Shown here piece after piece: positions 7,571-30,165 of a stretch of DNA of 38,216 bases (its first letter is position 1; every line of letters starts with the position of its first letter). The notes below the pieces were generated by a model. That model had not been told where the DNA came from and ran no database searches. It saw nothing but the letters and a program-made list of their open reading frames with translations. This DNA comes from a virus. Location of the stretch: IMG/VR virus record IMGVR_UViG_3300045988_060547, positions 1 to 38,216 of that record; one strand, 5' to 3'. Position numbers and translations under genes: made by a program.

Positions 7571-7633
7571 GCTCCCCTCGCCAGGGGAGCTGCTTTGCAG
7601 CGCCGCCGTCAGGCGGACTGCAAAGCTGAGAGG
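7571..7633 (-). repeat. Bipartite hairpin element copy 1 (BHE-1)
   Basis: GCTCCCC (7571-7577) pairs with GGGGAGC (7584-7590). CTTTGCAG (7593-7600) pairs with CTGCAAAG (7618-7625), enclosing an inner CCGCC/GGCGG stem. CTGAGAGG follows at 7626-7633. The element lies 26 nt upstream of the fibre gene start. Confidence 0.85.
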
Positions 7634-7676
7634 TTCCCTTCCGGTCCGCTGCCGTTTCCAAAGGCCTCTTCTTCTC

Positions 7677-7716
7677 CAGCCTACCACGTCCCCTGCTTCA
7701 AAACTACTGCGGACAT
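7677..7716 (-). promoter_or_regulatory. Conserved two-box motif (candidate late promoter or activator site), copy 1
   Basis: The + strand reads cagcctaccacg, then 10 nt, then caaaactactgcggacat. The same boxes with the same 10-nt spacing occur at 29670-29709. This copy lies directly after the TA terminator. Confidence 0.45.
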
Positions 7717-7760
7717 ATAAAAAGAACGAGCACCCCGGCTCACAGCCAGAGTGCTCGTTC
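7715..7760 (-). terminator. Rho-independent terminator of the toxin-antitoxin cassette
   Basis: GAACGAGCAC (7724-7733) pairs with GTGCTCGTTC (7751-7760). On the minus strand the stem is followed by TTTTTAT. It begins 6 nt after the toxin stop. Confidence 0.8.
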
Positions 7761-7765
7761 TTTTC

Positions 7766-8032
7766 TTAAAACTGATTCAGAATATCGTGGTGTCCGATGT
7801 CCAGCAGCAGTATGATGGTGTCTCCGTCGTATTGCCATATGACCCGAACATCCATATTGACGCTGAATTCGAACAGGTCTGTTGTTCCCTGTATCCGCTT
7901 TGTTCGCAGTGACGGGTATAGCGGATCCTGCATCAGCAGTTCCAGCTTCTTTTTCAGCTGTGTCCGTTCTGCTGCCGACAGCCGTTTCACGTTCTTGACG
8001 AACCGCTTGGTAAATGTGATCTTGTACGCCAT
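7766..8032 (-). CDS. Type II toxin, RelE/ParE superfamily
   Basis: The 88-aa product contains LLMQDPLYPSLRTKRIQGTTDLFEFSVNMDVRVIWQYDGDTIILLLDIGHHD. Its ATG overlaps the antitoxin stop (ATGA). Confidence 0.85.
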   Translation of the reverse strand: MAYKITFTKRFVKNVKRLSAAERTQLKKKLELLMQDPLYPSLRTKRIQGTTDLFEFSVNMDVRVIWQYDGDTIILLLDIGHHDILNQF

Positions 8033-8295
8033 CAGCTCACTCCATCCAACATCTCAAACAGCTCGTCAACGGTATCAAAGACCGGCTGTTCACCGGCTGC
8101 GATCTTCGCCTTTGTTTCATTGATCTCGCTGCGCAGCTCGTCCAGATACTTCTTGGGGTACACGGCCACCGGCATGATCTGGATGGTTCCGTCTTTTTCC
8201 ACGATTTCCAGCTTGTCGCCCTCGTGCAGGCCCAGCCGTGCCACGATGTCCTTCGGGATAGTGATCTGCGACTTTGTTCTCAACTCTGTCAGCAT
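8032..8295 (-). CDS. Type II antitoxin, AbrB/MazE/SpoVT-type
   Basis: The product contains KSQITIPKDIVARLGLHEGDKLEIVEKDGTIQIMP. The start was set at ATG 8295, with an AAGGAG SD 9 nt upstream, rather than the TTG at 8355. Confidence 0.85.
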   Translation of the reverse strand: MLTELRTKSQITIPKDIVARLGLHEGDKLEIVEKDGTIQIMPVAVYPKKYLDELRSEINETKAKIAAGEQPVFDTVDELFEMLDGVS

Positions 8296-8316
8296 ATCTG
8301 TCAGCTCCTTTGCATC

Positions 8317-8372
8317 GTTGGATTTTCCAACTTTCTTACCATCAGTATACGCCAACTGCGCCGAAATATCAA
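8317..8372 (-). promoter_or_regulatory. Sigma-A-type promoter and palindromic operator of the TA cassette
   Basis: The minus strand reads TTGATA (8372-8367), a 17-nt spacer, then TATACT (8349-8344). Downstream lies the palindrome GTTGGA-AAA-TCCAAC (8331-8317). Confidence 0.7.
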
Positions 8373-8379
8373 GTCATTC

Positions 8380-11300
8380 TTATTTCACCCCCTCCCACCA
8401 GTTCTTCTCGTTCTTCGCCTTCTCCGCCTTCTTGTCCGCATCCTTCACCCACTGCGCAAAGTTCTTTTCCTCGTACAGCGGATTCCCGTCTGCCTCCTCG
8501 AGGGCCAGCAGCTTCTTTTCCAGCCTCTCCCGGTCGCCGTCGCTTCCGGCCAGATACTCTTCCTTCACGGCCTCGGTGATCTTGCTCTTGATGCTGCCCT
8601 TGTCCTTGCCTGCGGTCATCAGGCGGTCAAGCTCCTCCTGCGCGTCCTTTGCCCGGCCATTTTTCACTTCGTCCAGGAGCGCGTCGTATATGCCGCCGTC
8701 CTTGCTGCCCGCCAGCAGTTCGTCCGCCTTGCCGTCCACCGCCTTGTTCACCACGTCGATGAGCTGCGCCCGCCGGGCCGCGTCCGCTTTGCCCTTGGCT
8801 CTGTCCGTCGCGGGGGCGACGCCCAGCCCCTCCCGCAGCTTCTCGAATACGGCCTGCCGGGCCTTTTCCTCGGCCCGGGTCTTCCCGGCGTTCCGGGCCT
8901 CGGCCGCCGCCAGCACGTCGGCGTCGTACTGCTTCAGCCGCCTTGCCAGCTCGCTGTCCACCTTGTCCGTCTTGTTCATCTGTTCCAGCTTCTTCATCGC
9001 CGCAGCAGCTTCCTCGCTGTCCCCGCTCTGGATGGCGTTGTACAGCCGGTCGTACTGCCCGGTAGCCGAAGAGGGGGCAGAGTTAAAGCTGAACCCTTCG
9101 CCTCTGCCGATGGCCTGTGCATCCTCCCAGTAGCCTTCAAACGCCTGCATCACCTTCCGGATGTTGGCCGCCGGTACGCCGTACAGCTCAAGGCCGCACT
9201 GGATGTCCTTCAGCACCGCCTTGTTCAGCTTCTGGTGGTGCGCCGCCAGCTCTTCCTCGCTCATCTCGCCGGTGTCCGTCCGCAGCAGCTTGGCGGTCTT
9301 GGTAAAGGCGGCAAACAGATCGTTCACCGCACTGATATTGGTGGCGCTCACCACGTCGTAGTCCGCGCCGCTTGCAGCGTTCGAGATAACGCTGTAGATC
9401 TCCGCTCCGTACAAAAAGTTTCCAGCTGCGCTTTCGGTGTACAGGTCGAAGAACCGCTTGCCCACGCTGGCCGCCGTGATGTCGCCGTTCTCGTCCTGCT
9501 CCCTGTCCCACCGGTGGAGCAAGAAGTCCGCGCCGATCTTCATCAGGGCAAATACCGCCGTCTGCACCGCCTGGCTTGCCGCCGCCCGGCGCAGGCTCTG
9601 CCCGGCCCGCTGTACCTCGGCCTTGTTCTCGGCGCTCTGGTCGGCAGCGTACCGGGATTTCTGGGCCTTGTAGTCGCCTACTGCGTCGGCCAGGATGCCG
9701 TAGTTCTGGAAGCGCTGGGTGGTAAACATGGTCAGCGTCTTTACAAACTCATTGTCGCTGCGCTGGATGCCCGCCCGCTGCATGGTGGTGTAGTTGGGCT
9801 GGGTCTCCTCGATGACCCGCTGGTACATCTTGTTCACGGCTTCCCAGTAGGCTTCGCTGCCCTTCTCCGCGGCACCCTCGCCGAATTCCGCTGCGTGGTG
9901 CTCCACATATCGCTTCGCGCCCTCCCACAGCGCCGCCACCGTGATCTCGTCCATGCCGGTGATCCAGCCGGTCACGGCAGGCATGGCTTCCGAGGCCTTC
10001 GCCACAAGGTTTTTGTGCGCGCCGATGGAGCTCATCTCGCCCCGCTTTGTCCCCCGCAGTCGGTATTGCAGCAGGGCGTCTCCGTGCCGGCGGATCTCTG
10101 CTTCCACCGCGGCCCGCTGCTTGCCCGAGAAATTCTTCACGAAGGGCAGCACCGCCGCCATGGTGTCTGCTCCCAGCACAGCGCCCGCCGTGGGCAGACT
10201 GGCTGCCTGCGCGATGGCCACGCCCGGGTTCACGGTCAGGATGGCCCCGGCGTAGTTGCCCCGCATCCGGTCCAGCGCCCGGCTCATGGTGCTGCTGCGG
10301 TGCCGCTGCCTGGTCTGCAGGTCGGTCAGCAGGTCATTGATGTAGCTTACCGTCTCCCTGCCCCACTTCTCGCCGATGATCTTGTCCTTCAGCACACCGA
10401 TGCCCTCTGCCGTCTCCACGGTGCTGTTCAGTACCCGCTGCACGTCCCGGATGGGGGCTGCAAGGCCCGCATAGGCTGCCGTGTCCCGCAGGCTCCGCTT
10501 CACCACGTTCTGACACTCTTCCAGCAAAATGGGCTTGTCGCTCTTCACGCGCTCCTTCAAAAAGCCCCGGCCCTCGATGGTGGCATCCATCTTCACGCCC
10601 TCGATCTCCGTCGCCAGCGTGCTCCGGTCTACCGCGATGGGGTAGTAGTTCTTCACGGTGGCCCGGTCGTAGCCCAGCAGCTTCATGCTGGTCTCGTTGA
10701 TGAGGTTCGTGGTGTACCGCCCGAAAAAGTCCTCCATGTCCTCGCACCATGCCCGGTCATAGTCCGTCATGGCGTCCTGTACCGTCTGCAAAATGGTGTC
10801 GGCCATGGGGACGCCGTCGGCGTTCACCAGTGTCCCCAGCATCACGGTCTGGCTGCGCTGGTAGGCCCTCTCGATGTTGCCCTTGGCGTACTGGACAGCG
10901 TCCGGCAGGGTCAGGCCGCCGGTCATCAGGTGGTGGCGGCTGTCCTCGTTGCGCAGCAGCATGTACAGGCTGCACAGCTGTGCGTGGTTCAGCGGCACGG
11001 CATTGCCCTTGCTGTCCTTCAGGCCGATGTCAACCAGCTCCGCCCCCGGCCCGGCAAAAGCCTCCACCTCTTTCAGGTGTTCCTTGCCGGTCACGTTGGC
11101 AAACAGGCTTTCGCCTTCTACCAGGATCTCCGTCTGCCGCCGCTGGCCGTCGTTCAGCATCTGCCCCAGCTTCTCCATCTGGCCGTTTTTAGTGTAGCCG
11201 CCCAGGCGCCGGAACATTCTCGTGCCGCCCAGCATGTCCAGCTGGTAGCGGTTCATCGCGCCCTTCGCCTTCTCAAATTTCTCCCCGAAACCGTTGCCCT

Positions 11301-14300
11301 CAGAGTTCAGCACCTCGTGGGCGGCCTTCATGGCCATGCTGTCCACTTCTTCGGCTCTCGCAAGGCTCAGGGTCTTGTTCTCGGTCCGGATCATGTGCAG
11401 GGTGCTGGCCGTGATGGCCTTCAGCATCCGCAGCTGGTCCACCGTCATGGGCAGATAGGTGCGGTTCTCCGTCTCCCGGATGCGCTGGCGCAGCCGGTCC
11501 CGCAGCTGTTCGGCCTTGTCGCCGTCCGGCAGAGCCCTGGCTTCTTCCAGCTGCTTGTTCAGCCGGTCCAGCTTTGCCTGCTTGCTGGCGCTCATGTCGT
11601 CCCGCAGCATCTGGATGAGGTTTTCCACGCCGCTGTTTTCCCAGTCGGCGTGGATGCCGGCGTCCATCTCTCCGCTGCGCCGGATGCTGTCCTGCAGGGC
11701 GGTCAGCTTGACCACGGCGTTGTTGTTCAGCACCGTCATGTCCGCCAGCTTCGCCACCTCGGCGGCCTGCACGATGAGGCTCTTCTGTACATATTTCCCG
11801 GGCTTCGGCCGCAGCACCATCTGGTTGAGCTGGGCGGCATTGTTCCGGATGCTCCGTTTCAGTTCGTCCGCCTTCCGTCCTTCCCGGGCTTTCTGTACCC
11901 GCTTTTCGGCCAGTGCCTTTGCCACGGCCACGTCTTCGTCCCGCTGCTGCCGGGCCGTTTCAATGGCGATTGCATTCCTCTGAGCCTGTTTTTCCTGCCA
12001 CGCTTCGGCCTTGCGCTGGTTCTCGGCCTCCCACTCCATGATCTCGTTTTCCTGTATCAGCAGCTGATGCTCCGCCCGGTCGGCCCGCTGCTGCTCTCCG
12101 GCCACCTGCCGGGAAAGGTCGTCGATCTGGGAGCGCAGCTGTCGGCGCTCCAGCTTTATCTCGTCCAGCATCTCCTGCCGGGCCTGCTTCATCCGGTTCT
12201 TTTCGGCCTTCCATTCCCGCTCGTAGGCTTCCCGCAGAGCAGTCATCTTCTCGTCGAGACCCGCCGCTGTGCTCACCTGTGCGCCCAGCGTTTCCAGATT
12301 CTCGTTGAGCTGTCGTTCTGCCCGGCTCACGCTCTTGACCTCGGCGCTCTGGCTGCGGCTGTTTTCCCGCATCCGGTCGGCAAAAGCCTTCCGCTGGGCC
12401 TGCTGCACGCTCTTCAGCCCCTTCGTCACCTCAGCCGCCCGCTCCTCGCTGCCGGCGGCCATGGCAGCCACCTCCCGGTTATGCTTTAAGATGCCCTCGA
12501 ACACCGCCTCGGCATCGGTCATCTCCGGGTGGCTCATGATGTCGCCGATCATCCGGCCCGCCAGCTCCACCTTGGCGTCCTCGTATTCGGCAGCGTCCGC
12601 GAACCGGCTCATCATCTTGGGCTTGATGGTGTCGTGTACGTTCATCAGCACATCGAGCCATTCCGTGCTCTCCATGACGGCTGCGCCCGCCACGCCCGCT
12701 TCCTGTGCCGCCGAGCGGAAGAGTGCCGCAGCGCTCTCCTTCACGCCGCCCACGGCCCGGGTGTCGTTCACGATGGCCTCGTACTGTTCCGCCGGGTTGC
12801 CGTCCCGGTATCCCTCCGCCTGCCGCAGCTTCACGCCGTGGCGCCGGGCCTCGGCCACCGCCTCTGTCCAGCTTCCGTACCGCTTCACAAGCTCGGCCTT
12901 GGCCTTGCCGTTCTTGTCTACCGTGTAGGTCAGGTCATGCAGGTCGGGGTACTCATCCCAGAGTTCCGTGTTCCGGTAGGTTGCCTCATCCAGCACCTCG
13001 CCTGCCAGCGTCTCGGCCAGTCCCTGCGCCTTGGCCATGTCCGCGCCCTCCGAGCGCAGATACTCCACCAGCGCCCGTGTCTCGTTTGCCAGCTTCGTCC
13101 GGTCGGTCCGGCTGCCGTTGGTCTTGGTCCACCGGATGGCGAGGCTTTCGAGGGCAGCGTCCGAGAGCCGGGTGTTCTTCGTCAGGCCGAAGAACTGGTT
13201 CAGGGTGTCAAAGGCCGCTGCCTTCTCCGCCAGTACCCGGCTGGCCTGCCGCTGCTGGTTCTGCTTGGCGTCCCGGTCGGCCTGCTCGGCCAGCTGAAAG
13301 CGGGTGGTTTTCTTCACAGGTTCGTCTGTTCTATTGCGTTCGGCAGAGGTTTGTGCTATACTCTGTTTAGAAGATACTTCCTGGGTGTCTGCAAAGGCAC
13401 TCAGCATCGCTTTCGGGAGCGATGTGGCGGTATCTTCTTTTTTTATTGGTAAGCCTTGAGTATTCAGTGTTACATAGCTTCCATCCGTCCAGCAGACTTC
13501 ATGTACATAGAACGCCCTTCGATTATCATGACGGTAAGAATTGACGATAACACTTTCATAAAGTCTTGCTCCATTGATCTCAACAGGTGCTGCAAAAACA
13601 TAGGTATCATAGCCTCTGCCCTGCCAGTTCTTTTCGTATCCAATTTGACGGCCATTTTTGATGATCTCAGGAATTGCGCCTACTGCTGCCTGTTTTGCGG
13701 CGCTGTTGCCGTGTTGGACGGTCGTTCTTGCACCTTTCACAGTCAATTCTACTGTTCCAAATCCCGACCTCTCAACACGATTTCCGAGAGAATCAAAATA
13801 AGCTGCAACATTCGCAATGTTTTCTTTTCGGCTTGTGCCAAACGAGACTTCTGTTCCCTTAATGACTGCTACCGTTTCCATCTGCTCGAGCTGTGTAAGA
13901 TTTTTATTCATCCGCTCAACAAGGGAATCTTTACCCTCATGCAGCTGAAACCGCACCCCTTTCTTTTCCGCCGCGCTCTCAGTCTTGAGAGCAGCGGCGT
14001 TTTCTTTTGCCGTCCGCAGGTTGTCCATGGCCTTTTCTGCGTGGGCGAAATACTCGTCCTGCAAAGTGCGCTTTTCGGCCTCGGCCAGGCGCTTCGCTTT
14101 CAGGGCGGCGCGGTCGTCCGGGTCGATGGTCAGCACTTCCTTCGCCCGGCTGATGAGCCCATCCAGCATCTGCCGCACCTGCTCCATCACCTTATGGATG
14201 GCGCCGCTCTTGCCTGCGTTCTTCTCTGCCTGCCCGCGCTGGAACGTCACCCAGCGCTTGAAGCTCTCCTCGCTGTCAAAGATGCCCCGCCATGCGTCGG

Positions 14301-17300
14301 CCACCAGCTCTTCCGCTGCCTGCTCGTAGGTCAGACTCTGGGCGCTGTAGTCCTCGAGCTTTGCCCGGATCATCTCGTCCAGGCTTTCGTAGCCGCTGCT
14401 CTTCGCCAGATATTCCAGCGCGTGCTCCTGCAAAGTCCTTGCGCCCTCGGCGTCCAGCGCGTTGTACCAGTGGTAGTCCTCGTGCAGCACCGTGCCGAAG
14501 ATGTCCTGCGCACTGTCGCCGAAGAAGATCCGGGCCGTCTCGGTGTCCACATAGGCCCTGATGCTCCGGTCGTTCTGCAGCACATCCCTCAGCACAGCAT
14601 CCGTGCCGGTGGCCGCCGCGTTCAGGCTGATGATCTGGCTGGCCGGGTCGCTCTCCTGCCGCATCGTACCCTTGGCGTATACCTCGCCCCTGCCGCTGGT
14701 ACTCTCGCTGCCAAGCGCGCCGCCCAGTTCGGTCATCTTTTCGGCATACAGCATCCGTTCGCCCTTGCCCTGGGTGTAGGCGATTTCAAGGGCCGTCCGG
14801 CCGGCGTCGGTGCTCAGGATATAATTGATGTCCGCCGCCGTGCCGCTCATGCTGCCCGCCAGCTCCAGCGCCTGCGCAAAGGTGGCAGCGCCTCTCCGGC
14901 CCAGCCGGTACAGCGGCGACGCTGCGGCCGCATACCGGTCGGCGTCCACCCTGTCCGGCATATTTTTGCTGATGGTCTGGGCTGCCTTATCCGTTACCCG
15001 CCAGCCTTCCAGCGCCCGCTGCACCTCAGCCTCCCGCTGGGTCTTCGGTGCTTCCGGCCGGAGACCCAGCGTCTCCCGCAGCGGGGCGTTCTCGTAGCTG
15101 TCGGTTTCAGCTGCGGCGGCAGTCGCTTCACGCACGTTGTCCGGTGCAGCCGTTTCCGGCATGGCATCGGCGGTTTCTGCGGGAGCATCCTGTACTGTCT
15201 GCGGCACATCCACAGCTTCGCCGGCCAGCTCTGCTCTCTGTGCAGCAGGCACTGCTTCGCTTTTTACGTTCTGCTGTGCGGCGATCTCCTGCAGCATCCG
15301 GCGGGTCGCGGCCGCAGTGTCGGGCAGCGTCACGCCGTAAGCCTGCTCAAAAGCCGCACGGTTTTCCCGGTTCTCGGCGTTCGGCGTAAACAGTCCGATG
15401 GTCTTGCCCGTCAGGCTGTCGCTCGCCGCCACCTCGGCAAACTGCCGCACCGCCGGGTTTTCCGACTGTGCAGCAGCCTCGTTTACGCTGCTGTTTACTC
15501 CTTCCGTCTGCGCCTGCGGCGCATCCGCCCGCTGCATACTTTCAGTGGAGCTCCGCTCTCGCGCGGCGTCAGCCGACGGGACCGGTGAGAGGTTTTCTTC
15601 CCGCCCGCTGATGTTTTCAGTGGCCGCAGGTGCAGCCTGGCTGAGAGGTTCTCCCCCCGCCAGCGCTCTATCAGTAGATCTATCCGCAGCCGGCTGAGAG
15701 GGCTCCGCCGCCCGGGCCTCCCACTCCTTCTGCCGGGCAGCGGCCCGTTTCCTCCGGTCCATCTGGTCATAATGCTCTGTCTGTCCCAGCAGGCTTGCGT
15801 CTCCTCCGTTCAGCTTTGCCAGCCCCGTGCCGACTGCGCCGCCCAACGCACCGGACGCGCCGCCGGAAAGTCCGCTTTCCAGCGCGGTGAGGAAGGTGTC
15901 TTTGGTAAACAGGTTCTTCGCCGCCTCGCTGTCCCCCAGCGCAGCGTCGATGGCCATGTCCGCATAGGTCTCCGCAAAGGCCTGCATCGAGTTGTCGATG
16001 CCGCCCGAGATGGCCGCAGCCACCGCCGGGTAGCGCTGCGCCAGCTCCGAGCTGCCCGCAAGCCCCTGCACCCAGTCCGCGATCTGCCCTGCCAGTGTGT
16101 CCTTCGCGTAGTCCGAGCCCATGGTCTTTGCAAGGTCGGCTGCGCCCACCGAGTTGATGGCCCATCCCGCGCCGAACTTGGCGAGGCCGCCGCCCAATGC
16201 CTTGCCGGCGCTCTCGCCCTTCTCCGCGCTCTGGCCCATGGCCTCTGCCGCTCCCTGTGCGCTCAGGACAGGCAGCACTGCCGCCGGGTTCACGCCCGCC
16301 ACAGCCAGGTTCTCCGCTGCGCTGGTCACGGCCCCCGCCACGGCCCGCTGGGTCGGGCTCAGGCCGCTCTGGGCCGCAGCCGTCAGCTGCTGGCCGCGGT
16401 CATAGAGCTGGTAGCCCACGCTCTGGTTCTTGTCTATGCCGTCGCTCACTTCCAGCCCCGCCAGCCTCTGGCGCATCTCCCGGATCTCCTTGGAGTTGTA
16501 CCCCATCGAGATCAGCTCCCGGTTCCGGCTCTCCGGCCAGGTGGGGTTATAATCCATGTCCATGTCGGTCAAAAGGTCAAAAAGGCTCTGGGCGTGTTCG
16601 TCGCCCTTTACCTCCTGCTCCACCTGTTTCCAGTTCTTCAGGGTGGCGTCAATGTTCTTTCCCGCCTGTACGCCGTACTCCGCGCCCAGCACCGGGGCAG
16701 CTGCCACCGTGTCCGCGATTCCGCCGATGGTGTTCGCCGTCCGGCGCACGCCCCGCTGCCATGCGGGGATGGCGTCCAGCGCAGCGTTCATCCGCCGGGC
16801 CTCGTTGATCTGCTCCTGTGTCCAGCCGCCCTTTTGGATGAGGTCGGCGTCCGTGTAGATGCCCGCGTTGTCCACCCGGCGCACCGCGTCGGCCAGATTC
16901 TTGTTGTCCCCGGTGTCCATCCACTGGTTGATCCGGTCAAACTCGTCCGGTACGCTGTCCTTGGCAAAGCTGGCTCTCAGCTCCTGCGCCGGGCCGGTGC
17001 CGTAAGCCATGGCCCCGCTGCCCACGTTCTCCAGCACGTTCCCGCTCTTCGCAGGTACGCCCCACTTCTGCCCCATGTCCAGCGCCCGGGCTGCCGCTTC
17101 CGGCATCTGCTGTGCCGGGCCGCTGCCCTCTGTAGCAGCGCCCGCCATTTTACGCCCCACAGAGCTTCCAGCGTCCAGCGGAAACTTGCCCGACACGCCA
17201 GTGGCTCCCACTCTGGGGGAGCTGGCGCGCAGCGCCTGAGAGGGCTCGTTCCTCGCATCCACTTCCCCCATGTCGCTGGAGTGCCGCTCGGTGTACTGCT

Positions 17301-22530: not shown

Positions 22531-22575
22531 GCCCTCTCAGGCCACTTCGTGTCCAGCTCTCCCAAAGGGAGAGCC
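22531..22575 (+). repeat. Bipartite hairpin element copy 4 (BHE-4), inverted orientation
   Basis: The + strand reads GCCCTCTCAG-GGCCAC/GTGTCC-CA-GCTCTCCC-AAA-GGGAGAGC. Its reverse complement aligns along the full length of copy 3. Confidence 0.8.
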
Positions 22576-22587
22576 ATCAGAGGTGCG

Positions 22588-23580
22588 TCAGTTCGCCTTC
22601 GCCTTCGCGCTGTACTTCGGGCTGACGCTCTCGATGCGCACCATGTACTGCTCACACAGCCGCTCTGCGGTCTTGATAGCCTTCCAGCCCACGGACGCGC
22701 GCTGGTTCAGCGGGTCTTCGCCTGCGCCCAGCTGCTTGACGATGTGCTGCAGGCCGCCGCCCTCCACCTCGGTCACAGCGTAGGCGTGAGCCGCCAGCAC
22801 CAGCGTACCGAACACGGCCAGACCGCTCGGGCAGCCGGTGCCGGTCCAGATCTTCGCCTCGCTGGTCTCGATGAAGCGCACACCGGCCAGCTTGCCGATC
22901 TCGCCGTTGTAGATGTTCTCGGGGGTAGAGTACTTGTGGACGTCGATCCACTCCGGGTTGCGGCGCAGGTCATAGGCCACATAGGGGTGGACGATGGCCA
23001 CATAGCTCTCGCCGATGGCGTCGGCATTCTGGGCCTTCAGGGCAGTGGCCGCCTGGTCGATAAGATCCGGCGTCAGCACACTGGCAGTGGTCAGGTTGGC
23101 GCGGCTGGTCACAGCAGTGTCGCCCGCCGGGGCGTAGATGACATTGGTGCCGCCCGCCAGCACCTCACGGGTCACGGTGTCCAGCGTGCGGCCTGCCTGA
23201 GACGCCAGCACCTTGGTGGCCTGGGTGATGTTGTTGTCGATGGCGGTCAGCTGCAGCACGTCGGTGATGGCTGCCCAGCCGCCGTACTGCTTCACGGTGG
23301 CGGTCATGGGGGTGACGGTCAGGGCCTGAGCATTGGGGGTCACGCCCTCGGTCAGCGGTTCGGTAGCCTTGGGCAGGCTCTCGTACTTGCGGAACTCGAT
23401 GGTCTTGCCGTTGTTGGCCGGGATGGGGTACTTGTCGCCGAACTGGTCATGCACCAGCAGCGGCTCTGCCTGATCCAGCAGACGCTTCTCGTAGTAGGTC
23501 TTCATTTCGGCGCTCATGCCAGTCGCGCCGGTGTGGTTTGCAGGCTGCGCAAACAGCTGCAGATTCATGTGGTTCTTCAT
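22588..23580 (-). CDS. Major capsid protein, N4-gp56 / HK97-fold type, with an N-terminal LQLFA propeptide motif
   Basis: The 330-aa product begins MKNHMNLQLFAQPAN and continues TYYEKRLLDQAEPLLVHDQFG...NNGKTIEFRKYESLP...PLTEGVTP. Confidence 0.85.
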   Translation of the reverse strand: MKNHMNLQLFAQPANHTGATGMSAEMKTYYEKRLLDQAEPLLVHDQFGDKYPIPANNGKTIEFRKYESLPKATEPLTEGVTPNAQALTVTPMTATVKQYGGWAAITDVLQLTAIDNNITQATKVLASQAGRTLDTVTREVLAGGTNVIYAPAGDTAVTSRANLTTASVLTPDLIDQAATALKAQNADAIGESYVAIVHPYVAYDLRRNPEWIDVHKYSTPENIYNGEIGKLAGVRFIETSEAKIWTGTGCPSGLAVFGTLVLAAHAYAVTEVEGGGLQHIVKQLGAGEDPLNQRASVGWKAIKTAERLCEQYMVRIESVSPKYSAKAKAN

Positions 23581-23642: not shown

Positions 23643-23705
23643 GCTCTCCTTTCTAGGAGAGCTGCTTTGCAGCGCCGCCGTCAGGCGGACTGCAAAGCTG
23701 AGAGG
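23643..23705 (-). repeat. Bipartite hairpin element copy 5 (BHE-5)
   Basis: GCTCTCC (23643-23649) pairs with GGAGAGC (23656-23662). The second hairpin and the CTGAGAGG box are identical to copy 1. The element lies 63 nt upstream of the capsid start. Confidence 0.85.
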
Positions 23706-25027: not shown

Positions 25028-26971
25028 TCACTTATTCGGGTTGTTGATGTTCATCGCCCTCTCGGCTGCCTTCGTGGCCAGCGGGTTCGTTCCGCCGCCC
25101 ACCTGTCCGCCCAGAGAGTTTGTTACCGTCTTTGCGCTGGTCTCTCCGCCGCCTCCGCCGCCGGTCATGGCAGCGGCCGCAGCCCCCGCCTGCTCGCTCA
25201 GGTTCGAGCCGTTCTGCTGGTCGATGACCGCCGCCATCTGCTGGATCTGTGCCATCGCCTGCTGCAGCTGCTGGTACAGGGTGCCGTTCTGAGCCACCCT
25301 CTGGCGCACCTTCTCGATGCCCTCGAAGTCCATCATGTCCAGACACGCCAGGGCTGCGTCCGCGTTGGCCGGAGCAAAGAATCCCAGCTGATAGCACTCC
25401 TTCGCCGTCTCGTTCTGACTAAGGCGGCTGAAGGTGCTCTTCTTGGCCGCGCTCACCGTGATGTCGAACACCGGCTCATGGGCGCCCAGCTCCACGCCGC
25501 CCACGCTCTCCACCGGCTGCGGCCGCAGCATCTGTCCCGAGAACTCCCGGTACTCCGTGCCGCCCTGCTGGCCGGTGATCCGGTAGACGCGGCTCTCGTC
25601 GTAGAACTGCCGCATCAGGTCGATGATGAAGTAGCATTCTTTTGCAAAGGAGCGGTAAGAGCTCTTCAGCATATCCCGGCTGAGCTTCGAGCCTGCTTCC
25701 TGCAGCGCCGCAATGGCCGAAGCAGCGGTCAGGCCGCTGGTCGCGCCGCCCTGGTTCACGTCCCGGTTGCCGCTGATCTCCTTCAGCTCGGCCACACGGT
25801 TCTGCTGGTAGGCGATGGTGTTGGAGGGCAGCGGGGCGGTATCCAGCTCCATAAAGCCCCGCTCGTCCAGTCGTCCCGTGATATGCACCACATCTTTCGC
25901 CGTGTCCAGCAGCTCGTCCTCGTTCACGCCCGCCGTGTCCGAGATAAGGTAGCGTTTCTTGGCCGCTGCCAGCGTGTTCTCGTCCATGGCCTGCGTCATC
26001 CGGTCGATGGCGTCCTGGGTGTCCTTCATCACGTCGATGTACCCGAAGCCCGCCGGGCTGTTCTCTTCCACAAAGAGCGGGTCGAACACAAAGGGATATT
26101 TTCCGTGGTCGTAGAAGCCCGTCTCGGCCATCGCCGGGTCGTTCTCGCTGGCGTAGAGCACCACGCCGTTGCAGAACTTGCAGTAATGCACCACGGTCTG
26201 ACCGCCGGGCTTCTCCCGCTTGTAATACCAGTCCACCACCACGCTCTTTTCGCTGGTGTCGATGTTCCGGTCGCTGACGTACTGCCCCACGGTGATGCCG
26301 CTGCTGCCCGCCTTGCCCTCCAGCTGAGGCCACCGGGCCGCCAGACGGTCGTTGTCGGCCAGTGCCAGCGAGAAAAAGTTTGCCGAGTCCTGGATGTCCT
26401 CCACGCCCGGCTCCCAGTAGAGCATCAGAAGATCCATGCTCCGGATGGCGATGTCCCCAAGGCCCTCCCGCAGCGCCGGGTCCCAAAAAATGCCCTTGAC
26501 GCCGGTACCCTGCTTGAGCTTGCGCCACCAGGTGTCGCTGTACACGCTCTCGTAGTCGGCCTGTTCCAGCAGCACCGGCAGGATCTCGGAGAGGAGCTTT
26601 GCCGTCTCCTCGTCGTCCTGCGCTCTCGGCAGCACGTTCGGCTCCGGGTAGTTGTCCATGGCGTCGGCGTGTTTGTTGGCGATGGAGTTGAACAGCCACC
26701 CCGTGCTGGGGGCGCGCTTGCCCTCCATCACCCGGTTGCCGTACTGCTTCCAGTGGCCCAGCTTGTACCATTCTTCGTTGTCGATGATCCGCTTGTCGAG
26801 GCTGGCCTTGGCCGACTTGTACTTCTCCAGCACAGCCATCGCCTCGCTGATCTCCTTCTCGCCGATCGCCGGTTCACCATCCAGCACCCCGGCCAGACTG
26901 ACTCCTTCTGTCTGTGCCTGCGGCTCGTTGTCGGCGACCGCCGCCATCATATCTGTTTCTCTTTCGTTCAA
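25028..26971 (-). CDS. Portal protein
   Basis: The product is 647 aa. The gene lies between terL and the scaffold gene. The N-terminus carries IIDNEEWYKLGHWKQYG, and the C-terminal tail is Gly/Gln-rich. The TTG start has an AAGGTGA SD. Confidence 0.8.
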   Translation of the reverse strand: MNERETDMMAAVADNEPQAQTEGVSLAGVLDGEPAIGEKEISEAMAVLEKYKSAKASLDKRIIDNEEWYKLGHWKQYGNRVMEGKRAPSTGWLFNSIANKHADAMDNYPEPNVLPRAQDDEETAKLLSEILPVLLEQADYESVYSDTWWRKLKQGTGVKGIFWDPALREGLGDIAIRSMDLLMLYWEPGVEDIQDSANFFSLALADNDRLAARWPQLEGKAGSSGITVGQYVSDRNIDTSEKSVVVDWYYKREKPGGQTVVHYCKFCNGVVLYASENDPAMAETGFYDHGKYPFVFDPLFVEENSPAGFGYIDVMKDTQDAIDRMTQAMDENTLAAAKKRYLISDTAGVNEDELLDTAKDVVHITGRLDERGFMELDTAPLPSNTIAYQQNRVAELKEISGNRDVNQGGATSGLTAASAIAALQEAGSKLSRDMLKSSYRSFAKECYFIIDLMRQFYDESRVYRITGQQGGTEYREFSGQMLRPQPVESVGGVELGAHEPVFDITVSAAKKSTFSRLSQNETAKECYQLGFFAPANADAALACLDMMDFEGIEKVRQRVAQNGTLYQQLQQAMAQIQQMAAVIDQQNGSNLSEQAGAAAAAMTGGGGGGETSAKTVTNSLGGQVGGGTNPLATKAAERAMNINNPNK

Positions 26972-27234
26972 CTATTCTCACCTTCTGGTCCTTCTAAAGC
27001 CTGAAATCATCGGCAAAGCCGTAAATCAGAGAAACGAGAAAAAAGCGTTTAGCGCAGCGGCTAGCTTTTTTCCGTTTCGACTTCTTCTTTGGGGTCTGAA
27101 AGGGGCGAGTAGCCCCTTTCTCGTGGATCCAGCGCGTCGAAATCGCTGGTGGTTTTCTGGTTCTCTTTTGACACCAAAAGAGAACATTAGCCTTAATGCA
27201 AAAGTGCTCTGACCTGCGCGGAGCGCAAAACAAT

Positions 27235-28695
27235 TCAAATCCTCATAAACCTCGTCTTGTCCTTCCTCGGATCCATATCCAGCGGGTCGTCCAGCATGGG
27301 CGGCGGCTGGGTGTGCTTTGCGGCGCTGATGGGGTTCTCCATCAGCACATACCGGCACTCGTCGTAGATGTGGTCTTCCTGCGTGGTGTCGATGTCCTCC
27401 ACATTGCTCTCGTCATAGACGAGGTTCGGGATGGTGCGGATGAAGTGCTTGCAGGTGTTGAAGACCTGCAGCATCGGCCTGCCGTCTTCGCCGAAAGCCA
27501 GTCGGTAGTGAAACTGCATCTTTCCCGCCAGACGGGTGTGGTCGCCGGGCATCCAGTGTAGAAAGTTCGGGCTTTTCTCCTGCATGTCCGCGATGCTCTC
27601 GCCCCGGCTCTCGTCAAAGATGGCCGGGTCGGCCACGCCCAGGATGACCCGGCCTTTCAGCAGCGGGTCGTTCTGCTCCGCTTCCCGGATCATCCGTGCC
27701 TGTTCCATCGGGTCCTTCCTCAGGCCCTCGTTGGGTGTGCCGGTGCAGCCGTAAAGCTCCTTGATGCGGTAGAGCCGCCCGCGCTCGTCCGCTGCATACC
27801 ACCCCACCGAAAACGGCTTCGAGAAACCAAAGTCGTATCCCCGCCAGATCTTCCAGTGCTCCGGGATGGGGAACGGTTCGATGACGTGGGTCCAGCGCTG
27901 GTCTTCATAGTGGTTCGGGTCGTTCCGCCACTCGGTGAACACCTGTCCCGAAAAGCTGTCCCAGTTTCCGTAGAGCAGTGCCTGCTTTTCGGCCTCCGGC
28001 AGCGAGGCCAGTGTGCCGATGTAGCCCGGGTCATTTTCCAGCAGCGCCGGGTTGTCAAAGACGGTGGACGGGATAAAAATGCGGGTGCGCCGCCGGGTGA
28101 TCTCTTCTCCGTCCGGCGCTTTCACTTTCACCAGCTGCACCATCCGCGTCCCGGCAGGTGCCGGACTGATGAACCGTGCCTTCACCCAGCCATGCCCCAC
28201 GCCGCCGGGGTTAGCCGTGGCCCGGATGTAGACCCGGGTGCCGGGGCCGGAAGGGCGGTTGCGGCTCATGACATAGCTGTATTCGTCCCAAGTAAAGTGC
28301 GTCAGCTCGTCCACGCCGATAAAGTCGAAGGCTTTGCCCTGATAGTTGTACTTGTCCTGCGCATGGTTCAGGCTGCCGAAATAGATCTTCGCCCCGCTGG
28401 GGAAAGTCCAGCAGTGGCTCGAGCCGTTGTACCTCGCTTTGGGAAACACCGGCTTGTAGTACCGCATGGTCTTGTCGATGAGCTCCGAAAGCTGCGGGTA
28501 AGTCTTTCGCAGGATGAGCGCCCGGTAGTGCGGGATGTGTACCTGCCGCAGTGCCTCGATGACGAGGGCGTCGCTCTTACCGCCTCCGGCAGCGCCCCCG
28601 TACAGAGCCTCGTCCTCGGTGCGCGCCATAAAAGCGGCCTGTCTCGGCTGCGGCGACCAGATCACCGGTCGTCCTCCGCGCCTTTTCTCCTCCAC
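27235..28695 (-). CDS. terL: Terminase large subunit
   Basis: The 486-aa product has a Walker A motif (GGAAGGGKS), a Walker B-like motif (FIGVDELTHF) and a C-terminal nuclease-type half. The GTG start follows GGGGAGG. Confidence 0.92.
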   Translation of the reverse strand: MEEKRRGGRPVIWSPQPRQAAFMARTEDEALYGGAAGGGKSDALVIEALRQVHIPHYRALILRKTYPQLSELIDKTMRYYKPVFPKARYNGSSHCWTFPSGAKIYFGSLNHAQDKYNYQGKAFDFIGVDELTHFTWDEYSYVMSRNRPSGPGTRVYIRATANPGGVGHGWVKARFISPAPAGTRMVQLVKVKAPDGEEITRRRTRIFIPSTVFDNPALLENDPGYIGTLASLPEAEKQALLYGNWDSFSGQVFTEWRNDPNHYEDQRWTHVIEPFPIPEHWKIWRGYDFGFSKPFSVGWYAADERGRLYRIKELYGCTGTPNEGLRKDPMEQARMIREAEQNDPLLKGRVILGVADPAIFDESRGESIADMQEKSPNFLHWMPGDHTRLAGKMQFHYRLAFGEDGRPMLQVFNTCKHFIRTIPNLVYDESNVEDIDTTQEDHIYDECRYVLMENPISAAKHTQPPPMLDDPLDMDPRKDKTRFMRI

Positions 28696-28785
28696 TCTGT
28701 CTGCCTCCCCTCTGTCGCAAGGCCCGGTGCTTCACGCCCCGCCAAGCTCTTCTTGTCCCGCCCAGACTTCCCCGGCCTGCCAATG

Positions 28786-28832
28786 CCTCGCCCTCTGGGA
28801 GAGGTGGCAGCGCGCAGCGCTGACGGAGAGGG
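28786..28832 (-). repeat. Bipartite hairpin element copy 6 (BHE-6)
   Basis: CCTCGCCC (28786-28793) pairs with GGGAGAGG (28797-28804) with one mismatch. CAGCGC (28808-28813) pairs with GCGCTG (28817-28822). GGAGAGGG follows at 28825-28832. The element starts immediately after the terS stop. Confidence 0.8.
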
Positions 28833-29525
28833 CTACTCCACCATCACCTCCGGCCCTTTTTCTTCCCGGCCCTCGGCCCCGATCTCCACCAGCGGTGGGG
28901 CATCGCCCTCGCTCTGGCTCTGGGCCGGTACCATCGCAGCAGCCTTTTCGGCCACGGTCATCAGCACGGTGGCCATGGCGGCTGCATTTTTGTCGCTCAT
29001 CACCCGGCCGCTGTACCGTTCCAGCTGGGCGTCCAGTAGTTTTCGCTCTTCGCTGTCCAGCTGCCGGTCGTAGCTGTCCTCGGCAGCGTACAGCACAAGC
29101 CCTGTCTCCGTGGCGTCTGCCAGCTCCTCGGCGTCGCTCTTGAGCAGTGTGCCTACCGCAAAGCAGCGGGCTCGAGCGTCCTCGTCCAGCTGCCGATGGA
29201 GCTTGGCCTGTACCTGCGCGGCCCGCTGGCTCTCGTCCACACGGCTCTGCAAATAGCTCACCTGCGCCCTCGCCCCGAGGCTGGCCCGGATCGCGATCTC
29301 CCGCGCAGCAGCCTGCCGCTCTTTTGCAAAGGCGTCGCTCCGGCCGGCTTCCTCGGCCATCCACGAGCGGATGGTGCTCTCCGGTACGCCGTACCGCCGG
29401 GCTACCGCACAGATGGATCCAGACGACAGCATGGCCATCAGCACCTCGGCCCGCACCTTCGGCGGGTACTTCCGCCCCCGCTGGGAGCCCTTTACCGTGT
29501 TTTTGCAATACCTGCGCCCTGCCAT
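28833..29525 (-). CDS. terS: Terminase small subunit (HTH-containing)
   Basis: The product is 230 aa counted from ATG 29525, preceded by GGGGAGG. It contains RKYPPKVRAEVLMAMLSSGSICAVARRYGVPESTIRSW. The gene lies immediately upstream of terL. Confidence 0.65.
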   Translation of the reverse strand: MAGRRYCKNTVKGSQRGRKYPPKVRAEVLMAMLSSGSICAVARRYGVPESTIRSWMAEEAGRSDAFAKERQAAAREIAIRASLGARAQVSYLQSRVDESQRAAQVQAKLHRQLDEDARARCFAVGTLLKSDAEELADATETGLVLYAAEDSYDRQLDSEERKLLDAQLERYSGRVMSDKNAAAMATVLMTVAEKAAAMVPAQSQSEGDAPPLVEIGAEGREEKGPEVMVE

Positions 29526-29613
29526 GCTCTGCCTCCCCTCTGCCGCAAGGCCCACGTTTTTGCGCTTCGTCGGGCCTGTTTCGTCCCGCTCAGGCCTGCC
29601 CGGTCTGCCAAGG

Positions 29614-29658
29614 GCTCCCCTCGGTAGGGGAGCTGGCGAGCGAAGCGAGACTGAGAGG
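29614..29658 (-). repeat. Bipartite hairpin element copy 7 (BHE-7), second hairpin degenerate
   Basis: GCTCCCC (29614-29620) pairs with GGGGAGC (29627-29633). CTGAGAGG follows at 29651-29658. The intervening GGCGAGCGAAGCGAGA no longer pairs. Confidence 0.7.
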
Positions 29659-29669
29659 TTCTTCCTTCT

Positions 29670-29729
29670 CAGCCTACCACGCCTCACGGGGCAAAACTAC
29701 TGCGGACATTTTGCCCGCAGTAGTTTTGC
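29670..29729 (-). promoter_or_regulatory. Conserved two-box motif copy 2, embedded in a 15-bp-arm perfect palindrome (candidate late promoter or operator upstream of terS)
   Basis: The boxes are cagcctaccacg (29670-29681) and caaaactactgcggacat (29692-29709). The arms gcaaaactactgcgg (29691-29705) and ccgcagtagttttgc (29715-29729) pair perfectly. Confidence 0.5.
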
Positions 29730-29847
29730 AAGGTCTCGCCGCAGGCGAGCACGGGTTGCGGCTCCCAGCGGTCATTTCGCTGCCGCTCATGCCCTGCTGG
29801 CCGCTGCCCCAACAACTCCTCCCTGTTTCCGCCACTGGCGGCGGTCG

Positions 29848-30165
29848 TCATCGTTGCCCCTTCGGGGGAGCTGTCGGCGCAGCCGACTGAGAGGGCATCA
29901 GCCCCGCCGCCGCCGCATACACTGCCACGGTGCTCAGCGCCTCCAGCTCCTTGTGGTAGTAGGTCGTTCTCCCGATGTGCAGCTTCGCCACCACCCGCTC
30001 CTCCGGCATCCCGTCCAGATACCTCAGCTCCAAAAGCCGCCTGCATACCGGATCTTCGGCCTCGTAGTAGTCCATCGCCAGCGCGATCACACCCGCCCAG
30101 TCGCTTTTTCCCTGTCCACAAGCCCGCAGCTCCGCCCGCACCCGTCGCTTCTGCTCTCTGGTCAA
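29848..30165 (-). CDS. Sigma-70 region-4-like HTH protein; probable late-gene activator
   Basis: The product contains RRLLELRYLDGMPEERVVAKLHIGRTTYYHKELEALSTVAVY. The gene lies directly upstream of the terS leader. The TTG start is uncertain. The C-terminal 15 aa are read through a hairpin element. Confidence 0.55.
   Translation of the reverse strand: MTREQKRRVRAELRACGQGKSDWAGVIALAMDYYEAEDPVCRRLLELRYLDGMPEERVVAKLHIGRTTYYHKELEALSTVAVYAAAAGLMPSQSAAPTAPPKGQR
29857..29895 (-). repeat. Bipartite hairpin element copy 8 (BHE-8), first hairpin shortened
   Basis: CCCC (29857-29860) pairs with GGGG (29865-29868). GTCGGC (29873-29878) pairs with GCCGAC (29882-29887). TGAGAGGG follows at 29888-29895. 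The element overlaps the last codons of CDS 29848-30165. Confidence 0.65.

Follow-up and report, generated by a model that had tools for sequence, protein, structure and literature searches.

A structured repeat between phage late genes whose distal box co-varies with its first hairpin in mirror register: a candidate relative of the BoxC/TMECO triplex repeats

The main new result of this analysis is that, in a repeat lying between the late genes of a prophage, the distal box co-varies with the first hairpin (HP1) in a mirror register. We analysed a window of 38,216 nt, that is, the whole stretch of DNA available. With a probability of roughly 0.6, we think that the late-gene element represents one family of widespread, interspersed and structure-constrained DNA repeats of bacteria and phages, with the capacity to form triplexes. 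Judged by its sequence, it appears to be a new relative of the BoxC/TMECO triplex repeats of E. coli. It is neither a phage-specific regulator nor an SD/anti-SD switch, the two interpretations offered in the initial annotation.

Copies of the element in the window

On the purine-rich strand, which here is the + strand and the template strand of the late operon, the blocks follow in the order pyrimidine arm, loop, purine arm, T, G-[variable second hairpin, HP2]-C, and purine/T box. The element thus has two hairpins, the second loop holding a hairpin of 9-39 nt, and its conserved flank is an 8-nt mirror box, CCYCTCMG. All eight copies listed in the initial annotation were recovered at the same positions and with the same architecture. 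A strict pattern (box, gap, CA, HP1) matched six times in the window and not once in 100 dinucleotide-preserving shuffles. A covariance model made from 47 copies of other loci found eight of eight, at 72 to 32 bits; once the model filters were disabled, the two copies with a long HP2 (1 and 4) aligned only from model position 8 (18-22 bits).

Copy 1 (7571-7633, minus strand; A/G-C type, 33-nt HP2, 32 bits) is separated by 25 nt from the start of the Big_2 fibre gene (751 aa), which lies downstream, and its purine strand, predicted to be the triplex-capable one, is the + strand. It shares an identical HP2 with copy 4 (23643-23705, minus strand; A/G-C type), found 62 nt upstream of the capsid gene. 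Copy 2 (18824-18871, minus strand; C/C-G type, 38 bits) precedes the 441-aa gene by 23 nt. Copy 3 (22392-22434, minus strand; C/C-G type, 72 bits) and copy 8 (22531-22575, plus strand; A/G-C type, 65.6 bits) are the right and left halves of a head-to-head doublet, which together with a spacer of ~100 nt fills the 248-nt gap between the capsid gene and the next gene. The box of copy 5 (28786-28832, minus strand; C/C-G type with one HP1 mismatch, 48.5 bits) begins directly after the terS stop codon, 90 nt away from terL. A conserved leader module of ~90 nt (28696-28785, minus strand) comes after copy 5, belongs to the same intercistronic cassette and ends in the terL ribosome-binding site. A second copy of this module (29527-29613, minus strand) separates copy 6 from the terS ATG at 29524. 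Copy 6 itself (29614-29658, minus strand; A/G-C type, 37.5 bits) is 89 nt from terS. The distances first given for the 441-aa gene, terL and terS agree with those that we read directly. Copies 6 and 7 had also been correctly described as decayed and shortened, respectively: copy 6 has a decayed HP2, while in copy 7 (29857-29895, minus strand; 48.6 bits) the HP1 3' arm is interrupted after GGGG and split by a nested insert of ~105 nt (29752-29856, minus strand). This insert is seen in the sequence and in relatives, where it recurs in other elements at the same position (GGGG^AGC).

The covariance model added a ninth copy that the initial annotation lacked (17200-17247, minus strand, core 17204-17243; 48.5 bits). 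It lies in frame in the 3031-aa virion gene, where it is translated as EPSQALRASSPRVGAT, and its site is a hypervariable hotspot occupied by a different element variant in each relative. Three decayed, box-bearing remnants are arranged in tandem in the same ORF, also in frame (15540-15705, minus strand; 13.7 bits); the third retains its box and an HP2 in which the G8-C26 pair is flipped, and has lost the HP1 3' arm. A further model match at 25054-25102 (plus strand) is a weak candidate.

Covariation of the hairpins and the distal box

The structure of the element is under selection, as shown by covariation in both HP1 and HP2. Among 100 distinct sequences, 96.4% of the stem cells are paired and 12 of the 14 pairs vary on both sides; none of 500 shuffles matched this, and slid controls reached 43-68%. 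The stem covariation claimed at first from the window is therefore real. G.T wobbles are nearly absent from the hairpins (18 of 1360 cells). When the DNA was folded with Watson-Crick pairs only, the two hairpins were significantly better than in shuffles in five of nine copies (z from -3.6 to -6.7, with -5.9, -6.7 and -6.0 for copies 1, 2 and 4). In those five, the 3' purine box was unpaired in four and weakly engaged in copy 8.

Hairpins between late genes could be intrinsic terminators or attenuators. CTTTCT comes after HP1 in copies 1 and 4, and copy 4 was flagged as terminator-like. However, the 14 terminator-like sites in the window are no enrichment over the 10.9 +/- 2.8 expected, only one of them coincides with an HP1, most copies lack the U-tract, and neither the conserved stem sequence nor the distal box is expected of terminators. 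The related PIT/TMECO elements are without terminator activity (PMC4666352). We consider this explanation very improbable.

Covariation between the box and HP1 was assessed by Fisher tests on 245 elements with distinct HP2, retrieved by patterns in which the HP1 core is fixed. The outer HP1 pair co-varies with box position 7 (127/1/2/113, p = 2e-66) and the innermost pair with the base that flanks the box on its 5' side (124/2/1/81, p = 2e-54). The third association is that of box position 3 with the Y/R pair (61/0/98/86, p = 3e-14), where C never occurs with T-A. The three sites are largely independent, an association being seen only between the flanking base and Y, and all 12 of their 12 state combinations are populated; consequently, two subfamilies cannot explain the pattern. 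Scans anchored in HP1 only gave the box CCCCTC 84 times and CCTCTC 27 times when R = G, and 0 and 59 times when R = A.

This register decides against the SD/anti-SD switch, a model in which a single SD-like purine box is contested by two pyrimidine boxes, the choice of partner toggling ribosome access or the fate of the RNA. In the C/C-G type, the box CCUCUCC can indeed pair with GGRGAGG over 7 bp, one G.U included. However, antiparallel pairing predicts that box position 5 tracks R and position 1 the outer pair, and the covariation observed runs parallel. Moreover, the alternative helix has only 5 bp in the A/G-C type, which makes up 57% of copies, CCCCTC boxes place C opposite A, and the CCTCCC boxes required by the antiparallel model were not seen among the elements retrieved. 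With the element present host-wide and in both orientations, we give the switch hardly any credence.

Read on the purine strand, the combinations are the purine-motif base triples G.G-C, A.A-T, T.A-T and T.C-G, the last at the inverted outer pair; work from the Dervan laboratory is said to rank T.C-G as a good purine-motif triple. In the register test, canonical purine-motif triples account for 88% at register 0 and 35-52% in shifted registers, against 77% for the pyrimidine motif and 68% for the best antiparallel Watson-Crick register. All 8 triples of copy 3 are canonical, and one mismatched triple (A.G-C, the box T facing G-C) is present in ~40% of canonical copies. The mirror rule is also obeyed by other cores in a generic scan, which was confined to loci retrieved with patterns that fix the HP1 core: ATCCCTCM/SCTCCCTT, CTCCCTCM/SCTCCCTC, CCCCACCC/ACCTCCCC and CCCTCATC/CTTCTCCC are examples. 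There, the box base at T-A pairs is T in 1428 cases, A in 439, C in 63 and G in 33, T and A being A or T on the purine strand as the purine-motif rule asks, and at the inverted outer pair it is A in 264 of 275 cases. The element thus shows the class II block order with purine-motif-compatible bases that is expected of a BoxC/PIT/TMECO triplex repeat.

We infer that this covariation pattern describes a class II intrastrand DNA triplex. On the single-stranded purine strand, the first two blocks would form HP1 and the distal box would return along the purine arm in antiparallel orientation, lying in the major groove and giving a purine-motif triplex in which HP2 is a hairpin inserted in the second loop. 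Such a triplex would presumably be transient, arising on DNA made single-stranded by replication, transcription or recombination.

The box bases also bear on an RNA-level cis element, whose GC-rich hairpins between cistrons would block exonucleases or mark processing, stabilising or insulating the downstream cistron. The box might add to it a pyrimidine-motif RNA triplex as the Hoogsteen strand. Pyrimidine-type intrastrand triplexes are possible in RNA, while purine-motif triplexes do not form in it (PMC4666352). However, whole sub-families have a box A facing T-A pairs (22% of such positions overall), which is a mismatch in the pyrimidine motif, and so is the box A at the inverted pair. Acidic pH would be needed for a third strand in which 5-6 of 8 positions are C+, G.U wobble is nearly absent, and the hairpins are not enriched as terminator-like sites.

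Genomic distribution, orientation and polymorphism

The same architecture was found in fetched loci of ~100 bacterial genomes, mostly gut Clostridia, with further hosts among Negativicutes, Caulobacter and Planctomycetota, and in several hundred viral-contig stretches. The flanking host ORFs (20 sampled) are housekeeping genes or have no Pfam match; transketolase, NrdD, ParC/GyrA, Pta, MetA and PheT are among the neighbours. Copies also occur in frame inside ORFs. Copy density in this prophage is several-fold above that in adjoining host DNA.

The cassettes that carry the element come and go. Prophages with an identical capsid protein have them present, absent or replaced, and the gap between the capsid gene and the next gene, 248 nt in the window, is only 14 nt in the relative L244. 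Such polymorphism, by presence/absence and by replacement, was seen when near-identical prophages were compared and also at one site in a host. What sets empty sites apart from filled ones is a whole cassette, ribosome-binding site included; their comparison revealed neither the clean ends nor the target duplication sought as marks of a MITE, and no mobilising gene was recognised. Copies beside housekeeping genes in ~100 bacterial genomes, together with this turnover, contradict the proposal of a phage-specific regulator. From the three analogies drawn initially, REP/BIME proved to be the nearest; a put-type antiterminator or an RNase III site would be phage-specific and required, whereas the element is host-wide, spans several phyla and is dispensable among the identical-capsid prophages.

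Orientation differs between phages and hosts. The single copies of the window, the in-ORF copy included, are all in mRNA sense (7 of 7). By crude ORF calls, single copies on phage contigs have the pyrimidine strand in the mRNA in 44 cases and the opposite in 15 (64 vs 24 with in-ORF copies counted), and many lie 5-25 nt upstream of a ribosome-binding site. An RNA-level cis element would account for these observations. However, host copies, mostly intergenic, are unbiased (12:19, also by crude ORF calls) and often form inverted doublets, and the cassettes are dispensable in near-identical prophages, down to the 14-nt gap of L244. Taking these points together with the mismatched box bases, we regard an RNA-level function as unlikely to explain the element. 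This reading is what is left of the punctuation idea of the initial annotation once the switch is removed. Given the copy richness of the prophage and the orientation bias in phages, the copies may have a side effect at the RNA level within the late operon.

Doublets follow a rule of their own: 40 of 54 inverted doublets are hetero-type (A/G-C plus C/C-G), while tandem pairs join copies of the same type in 13 of 14 cases. The inverted pairing of two types, reminiscent of the Y and Z REPs in BIMEs, could point to a non-autonomous element of the REP/RAYT or IS200/IS605 kind. An HUH (Y1) transposase would then recognise the hairpins and box on ssDNA, and the covariation would reflect protein-assisted DNA-DNA recognition instead of a free-standing triplex. 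The interspersed, intergenic placement, the nested insertion at a fixed HP1 position and the presence/absence polymorphism would fit. Against this, the element has no conserved GTAG-like tetranucleotide beside the palindrome, its flank being the CCYCTCMG box, and no RAYT or other transposase gene was found among the 20 flanking ORFs scanned. REP/RAYT pairs are lineage-specific, and the same core is found here across several phyla. HP2 differs in almost every copy, unlike what recent transposition from a master copy would leave. We find this kind of element quite improbable, more so than an RNA-level function. As an account of spread, it is partly compatible with a triplex repeat.

Relation to known repeats

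REP, BIME and REPIN sequences resemble the element in being short, interspersed, palindromic and strain-variable, in forming mosaic inverted doublets of two types and in possible mRNA stability effects as a side effect. They differ in being single imperfect palindromes of lineage-specific sequence, with no mirror-repeat third block. Rickettsia palindromic elements (RPE) are short structured repeats that insert in frame into genes and are translated; they are not known to be related to the present element in sequence, hosts or structure.

The closest likeness is to BoxC/PIT/TMECO, described from E. coli and other Proteobacteria (Hoyne et al. 2000, as cited in Holder et al. 2015, PMC4666352). 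Both have the block order pyrimidine arm-loop-purine arm-loop-purine/T third strand of the class II purine motif and a very similar G/C-rich core (CCCTCTCCC / GGGAGAGGG / GGGTGAGGG). Both are interspersed and intergenic, commonly have one mismatched triple, and vary in copy content between close strains. Inverted pairs combine two types in both, A and B in TMECO (PMC4666352). As NMR and CD demonstrate, TMECO/BoxC single strands fold into very stable triplexes in vitro. Their loci differ between strains to an unusual degree, and TMECO is linked to instability; in vivo, DMS footprinting gave no sign of a triplex, and tests for promoter, terminator or conjugation effects were negative (PMC4666352). 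However, the stems of TMECO measure 9 nt and its second loop 3 nt, whereas the new family has 7-8-nt stems and a second loop of T plus G-[5-14 bp hairpin]-C. Reports of TMECO repeats are confined to Proteobacteria, with none on phages, plasmids or transposons; they are always intergenic and show no strand bias. The new family is found mainly in gut Clostridia and their (pro)phages, lies in frame in ORFs and is orientation-biased in phages. The TMECO consensus CCCTCNCCC-N3-6-GGGNGAGGG-N3-GGGNGAGGG had 0 matches in the window, and BLAST of the element against 5,426 E. coli genomes gave no match. The ITxF finder permits loops of 1-6 nt, and would thus miss a hairpin-interrupted family.

For a triplex repeat of this kind, it is tempting to propose that the fold is needed for persistence or spread, either as the recognition structure for a putative mobilising activity or as a polymerase-stalling, recombination-prone joint. 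In this prophage, the copies would then ride along with intercistronic cassettes as tolerated passengers, and the orientation retained would be the one in which the purine strand falls on the template strand. A bolder version, which we put forward only tentatively and think somewhat doubtful, is that the triple covariation reflects an intrastrand DNA triplex under purifying selection in cells. The repeats would form a superfamily over at least 4-5 phyla and their phages, with several core sub-families, and phage copies would act as recombination joints driving cassette/moron exchange and in-frame hypervariability of virion proteins.

Such a superfamily would probably include the Whalefall-1 "RNA" (RF01762; Weinberg et al. 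2010, PMC2864571), which in its annotation is a non-coding RNA restricted to whale-fall metagenomes (PMC2864571) and may itself be a triplex DNA repeat. It shares the layout on the same (purine) strand: a UCuCuCC-loop-GGaGaGA hairpin, a second hairpin of ~23 nt and a conserved single-stranded GgGuGAGG box. Neither the window nor 10 variant loci gave a match at Rfam gathering level; the Whalefall-1 model scored 17.0 and 13.7 bits in the window, below its 37-bit gathering threshold, and best (25.9 and 23.4 bits) in the GGGTGAGG sub-family. When it is matched with the purine arm in antiparallel orientation, the box of the Whalefall-1 consensus can give purine-motif triples in 6 of 7 cases.

Architecture and covariation of the element

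The eight copies of the two-hairpin element lie where the initial annotation had placed them. In the mRNA sense (minus strand), the element is composed of a box, N0-CCYCTC-M-G, a variable GC-rich hairpin of 9-39 nt (HP2), the dinucleotide CA and a second hairpin (HP1) of the form S-CTCYCC-X' / loop / X-GGRGAG-S'. A strict pattern finds 6 matches in the window and 0 in 100 shuffles. A covariance model built on 47 copies from other loci, with rough E-values, recovers 8/8 window copies and adds a ninth at 17200-17247 (minus strand), in frame within the giant ORF. Three decayed remnants were also located at 15540-15705. The stem covariation claimed earlier is confirmed, as both hairpins are backed by compensatory change: in 100 distinct sequences, 96.4% of cells are paired (43-68% in slid controls), 12 of the 14 stem pairs vary on both sides, and 0/500 shuffles are as good. 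In 22/100 distinct copies, a T.C mismatch replaces the second base pair of HP2 (G-TC...GC-CA form; alignment A2, columns 14 and 66).

Three covarying positions show that the distal box mirrors the HP1 pyrimidine arm and is not its Watson-Crick competitor. Among 372 unique elements, an outer HP1 pair of G-C is accompanied by A at box position 7 (210) and one of C-G by C (155), with 7 exceptions. An innermost C-G pair goes with C as the base 5' of the box (183), and T-A goes with A (138); about 30 elements deviate. When HP1 alone served as the anchor of the scans, C at box position 3 was restricted to elements whose variable pair of CTCYCC/GGRGAG is C-G (CCCCTC 84 vs CCTCTC 27), the corresponding counts for T-A being 0 and 59. 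Fisher p values, obtained from 245 elements with distinct HP2, are 2e-66 for box position 7, 2e-54 for the base 5' of the box and 3e-14 for box position 3. Since these sites are largely independent of each other (the sole association is that of the flanking base with Y) and 12/12 state combinations occur, shared ancestry of two subfamilies cannot explain the covariation.

The initial annotation had proposed a switch in which anti-SD-like pyrimidine boxes compete for an SD-like purine box. In such antiparallel pairing, R would be tracked by position 5 and the outer pair by position 1, and CCTCCC boxes would be required; no such boxes were seen. The covarying positions face each other with the box parallel to the purine arm, a register that contradicts the switch. 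A generic scan for any all-pyrimidine arm followed by HP2 and a box revealed more sub-families, with cores such as ATCCCTCM/SCTCCCTT, ATCCCCCM/SCCCCCTT, CTCCCTCM/SCTCCCTC, CCCCACCC/ACCTCCCC, CCCTCATC/CTTCTCCC and CCCCTCAC/CTCTCCCC, all of which keep the mirror rule. A direct repeat of box and arm would predict that position 5, and not position 3, tracks Y, and it also fails for cores such as CCCTCATC/CTTCTCCC.

Strand and motif of the proposed triplex

A mirror arrangement can be read as a triplex on either strand. If the pyrimidine strand is taken, the box would act as the Hoogsteen strand, with C+.G-C and U.A-U triples. This motif cannot account for A at the terminal T-A pair (138, vs T once), for A at the inverted outer pair (264/275) or for sub-families with box A opposite internal T-A pairs; overall, the box base at T-A pairs is T in 1428 cases, A in 439, C in 63 and G in 33. 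On the purine strand, the same data give G.G-C, A.A-T or T.A-T, and T.C-G, that is, the purine-motif repertoire. T.C-G is said in the Dervan-lab literature to be a good purine-motif triple. The order along this strand (pyrimidine arm, purine arm, reverse-Hoogsteen strand) is that of class II, and canonical purine-motif triples fill 88% of positions at register 0 vs 35-52% in shifted registers. One A.G-C mismatch is tolerated in about 40% of canonical copies, as it also is in the commonest type of TMECO, the E. coli triplex repeat known as BoxC or PIT (PMC4666352).

RNA has been reported unable to form purine-motif triplexes (PMC4666352) and the stems are almost without G.T wobble; because of this, the selected structure would reside on single-stranded DNA. 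The G.T vs A.C asymmetry in the stems, taken as a test of the functional strand, is 7 vs 11 and favours neither strand. Compact elements without HP2, TTCCCCTCC-A-CCTCCCC-GCTA-GGGGAGG, present the triplex motif with a one-nucleotide loop in five environmental viral contigs (L295, L298, L328, L367 and L377).

Neither the formation nor the importance of intrastrand DNA triplexes in cells is settled. For BoxC/PIT/TMECO, the best-studied case, the triplex is proven in vitro only and a function beyond "instability" is not established (PMC4666352). The family described here amounts to a natural mutational experiment, with hundreds of diverged copies in several sub-families across which the third strand stays matched to the duplex by purine-motif rules. 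From these sequence comparisons, it is difficult to account for this match in any other way than by selection acting on the triplex or on an equivalent bound to protein.

Relatives and distribution of the repeat

TMECO, with the pattern CCCTCNCCC-N3-6-GGGNGAGGG-N3-GGGNGAGGG, forms a class II purine-motif intrastrand triplex in vitro according to NMR and CD (Holder et al. 2015, PMC4666352). E. coli MG1655 carries 23 copies, intergenic and without strand bias; inverted pairs always join type A to type B, and copy content is strongly strain-variable (PMC4666352). Neither promoter or terminator activity nor, by DMS footprinting, a triplex in vivo was detected, and the repeat was reported in Proteobacteria only and not on phages (PMC4666352). 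Our element shares its logic, a very similar core, strain variability and hetero-type inverted doublets (40/54), the type being defined by box position 7 and the outer HP1 pair. However, its second loop is T plus G-(hairpin)-C instead of three nucleotides, and thus it misses the TMECO consensus; TMECO pattern and BLAST searches were both negative. The finder of Holder et al. considers loops of 1-6 nt only (PMC4666352) and would therefore miss this family. Short-loop triplex finders overlook whole families, and triplex repeats reach gut Clostridia and their phages. No description of a comparable Faecalibacterium or Clostridia repeat was found in the literature searched.

Whalefall-1 (Rfam RF01762) shares the layout of the element and the strand on which it is read. 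The element scores 17-26 bits against a cut-off of 37; we suspect that Whalefall-1 is another sub-family. In E-value mode, Rfam gave sub-threshold matches only, to whalefall-1 and to the alphaproteobacterial serC leader (RF00517), the latter weakly (15 bits) at 22379-22418 (minus strand); the serC leader family may overlap a member of the element superfamily. A recurrent "two-hairpin RNA motif" of metagenomic phage operons may be a DNA repeat and not a regulator, and some Rfam motifs may likewise be DNA repeats. At gathering thresholds, the only Rfam match in the window is an unrelated DUF3800-VIII RNA near the left end of the prophage (546-609, minus strand), full-length and scoring 82 bits where the gathering score is 40.

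The window is a 38 kb, 61% GC prophage with podovirus-like late genes on the minus strand: terS (ATG at 29524), terL (27235-28695), portal (25028-26971), capsid (22588-23580) and an LPD3-type giant protein of 3031 aa (8380-17475), together with a Prp-like protease, an internal virion protein, a Big_2 fibre gene and an endolysin. Its nearest phage records are human faecal contigs without annotation. Metagenomic contigs of 146-348 kb encode proteins identical to three from the window, the capsid protein among them; beyond an integrase, these contigs carry sporulation and housekeeping genes (YabP, YqfD, Hsp33, EngB and Lon on one side; PhoH, YbeY, Era, RecO and MutS2 on the other). These flanks identify the host as a gut Clostridia bacterium.

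With the HP1 core fixed in the retrieval patterns, a full-pattern search returned at least 120 stretches in the viral collection and at least 120 in the genome collection, which holds one genome per species. About 100 different genomes appear among the genome matches listed, the majority from Oscillospiraceae, Faecalibacterium, Ruminococcaceae, Acutalibacteraceae and Christensenellales, and the remaining ones from Negativicutes, Caulobacter (three genomes), Hyphobacterium and MAGs of Planctomycetota, Acidimicrobiia and Longimicrobiaceae (one each). The covariance model confirmed these loci (212 matches in 100 genome loci). Pfam found 0 phage or transposase domains in 20 ORFs adjoining host copies, the matches including a GlmU-like enzyme, transketolase, topoisomerase IV/gyrase A, a DinG-like helicase, DegT, Pta, NrdD, MetA and PheT. 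ORF calls here are crude, as is the read-through and stop-anchored context analysis used (at 61% GC, ORFs extend through intergenic DNA). The notion of a phage-specific regulator does not survive copies in about 100 listed bacterial genomes with housekeeping matches beside those sampled.

Extra sites in retrieved 8-kb blocks suggest roughly 1 site per 15-30 kb in carrier genomes, a figure biased by block retrieval. Within about 8 kb on each side of the prophage in six contigs, only one doublet was seen, which one strain has and two lack, as against nine copies in the 38 kb of the prophage. The repeat therefore occurs host-wide and in several phyla, yet is enriched in the prophage.

Turnover, cassettes and orientation in phage operons

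Intergenic cassettes vary among prophages with an identical capsid protein. The gap between capsid and next gene is 14 nt in one related prophage (L244) and 248 nt in the window, where it is occupied by a head-to-head doublet of copy 8 (22531-22575, plus strand) and copy 3 (22392-22434, minus strand); L242 and L243 have other modules there. The 58-aa and 193-aa genes are 24 nt apart in the window, vs 131 nt, with an element in between, in four relatives. Between terL and portal, the window has an unrelated module of ~200 nt, L245 and L246 a triplex element, and L242 almost nothing. This hairpin-rich module (26972-27234, minus strand; GTTCTCTTTTGGTGTCAAAAGAGAAC ... GAAAGGGGCTACTCGCCCCTTTC ...) occurs at other gene junctions in L241, L243 and L244 and is missing from the terL-portal junction in L242. 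Two cassette types were recognized, an element with a ribosome-binding site and an element with a conserved leader of ~90 nt (CMTTGGCAGRCCGGG ... GGGCCTTGCGRCAGAGGGGAGGCAGA), the latter between the element and the start codons of terL (28696-28785) and terS (29527-29613), both on the minus strand. The leader end also occurs at 22357-22371; the leader start is common 3' of elements in other viral contigs, and its coding form (ATGVSGKF) lies in the giant ORF.

Copy 7 (29857-29895) is itself interrupted: a nested insert of ~105 nt (29752-29856, minus strand) splits its HP1 3' arm between GGGG and AGC. The insert is conserved (CAACGATGACGACCGCC ... GCTGGGAGCCGCAACCCG), is always found within an HP1 3' arm, with GGGG before and AGC after it, and has no Rfam match. 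It occurs in L241 (4527-4831), L242 (9737-10000) and L243 (14004-14283), and in L245 it is translated in frame within the giant virion ORF. A perfect 15-bp inverted repeat (GCAAAACTACTGCGG ... CCGCAGTAGTTTTGC; 29691-29729) lies between the insert and copy 6 (29614-29658). The giant protein has a hypervariable hotspot between ...DMGEVDARN and ATGVSGKFP (about 17190-17250, aa 76-97 of 3031), all versions of which are in frame; they are described both as different in each relative and as five element-derived peptide versions among seven relatives, and one variant includes the nested insert. On viral contigs, 48/259 elements fall in a reading frame that is open in the element's own sense; the proteins concerned include some of 3000 aa and some of ~500 aa with two copies. 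Comparison of empty and filled sites for ends or target duplications gave no clean boundaries. The polymorphic cassettes and the in-frame hotspot provide defined sites for studying repeats in phage mosaicism.

Our data favour a structured, selfish or recombination-prone DNA repeat, which would be carried along with intercistronic cassettes, over a dedicated regulator. Intrinsic terminators are not enriched. The purine strand is on the template strand in all seven single copies of the window and in 44 vs 15 cases on viral contigs (p = 2e-4). This bias may mean that a purine strand prone to triplex formation is selected against when it is the non-template strand of an operon under heavy transcription. 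Alternatively, it could reflect a beneficial effect of the RNA hairpins on neighbouring cistrons, which we consider unlikely.

Besides elements, the cassette junctions carry HicAB or MazE/YafQ morons. At 7766-8355 (minus strand), a MazE/YafQ toxin-antitoxin pair is flanked by the giant and fibre genes; in relatives (L241, L243 and L245, about 15188-17916), HicAB pairs occur at neighbouring junctions where the window has triplex elements.
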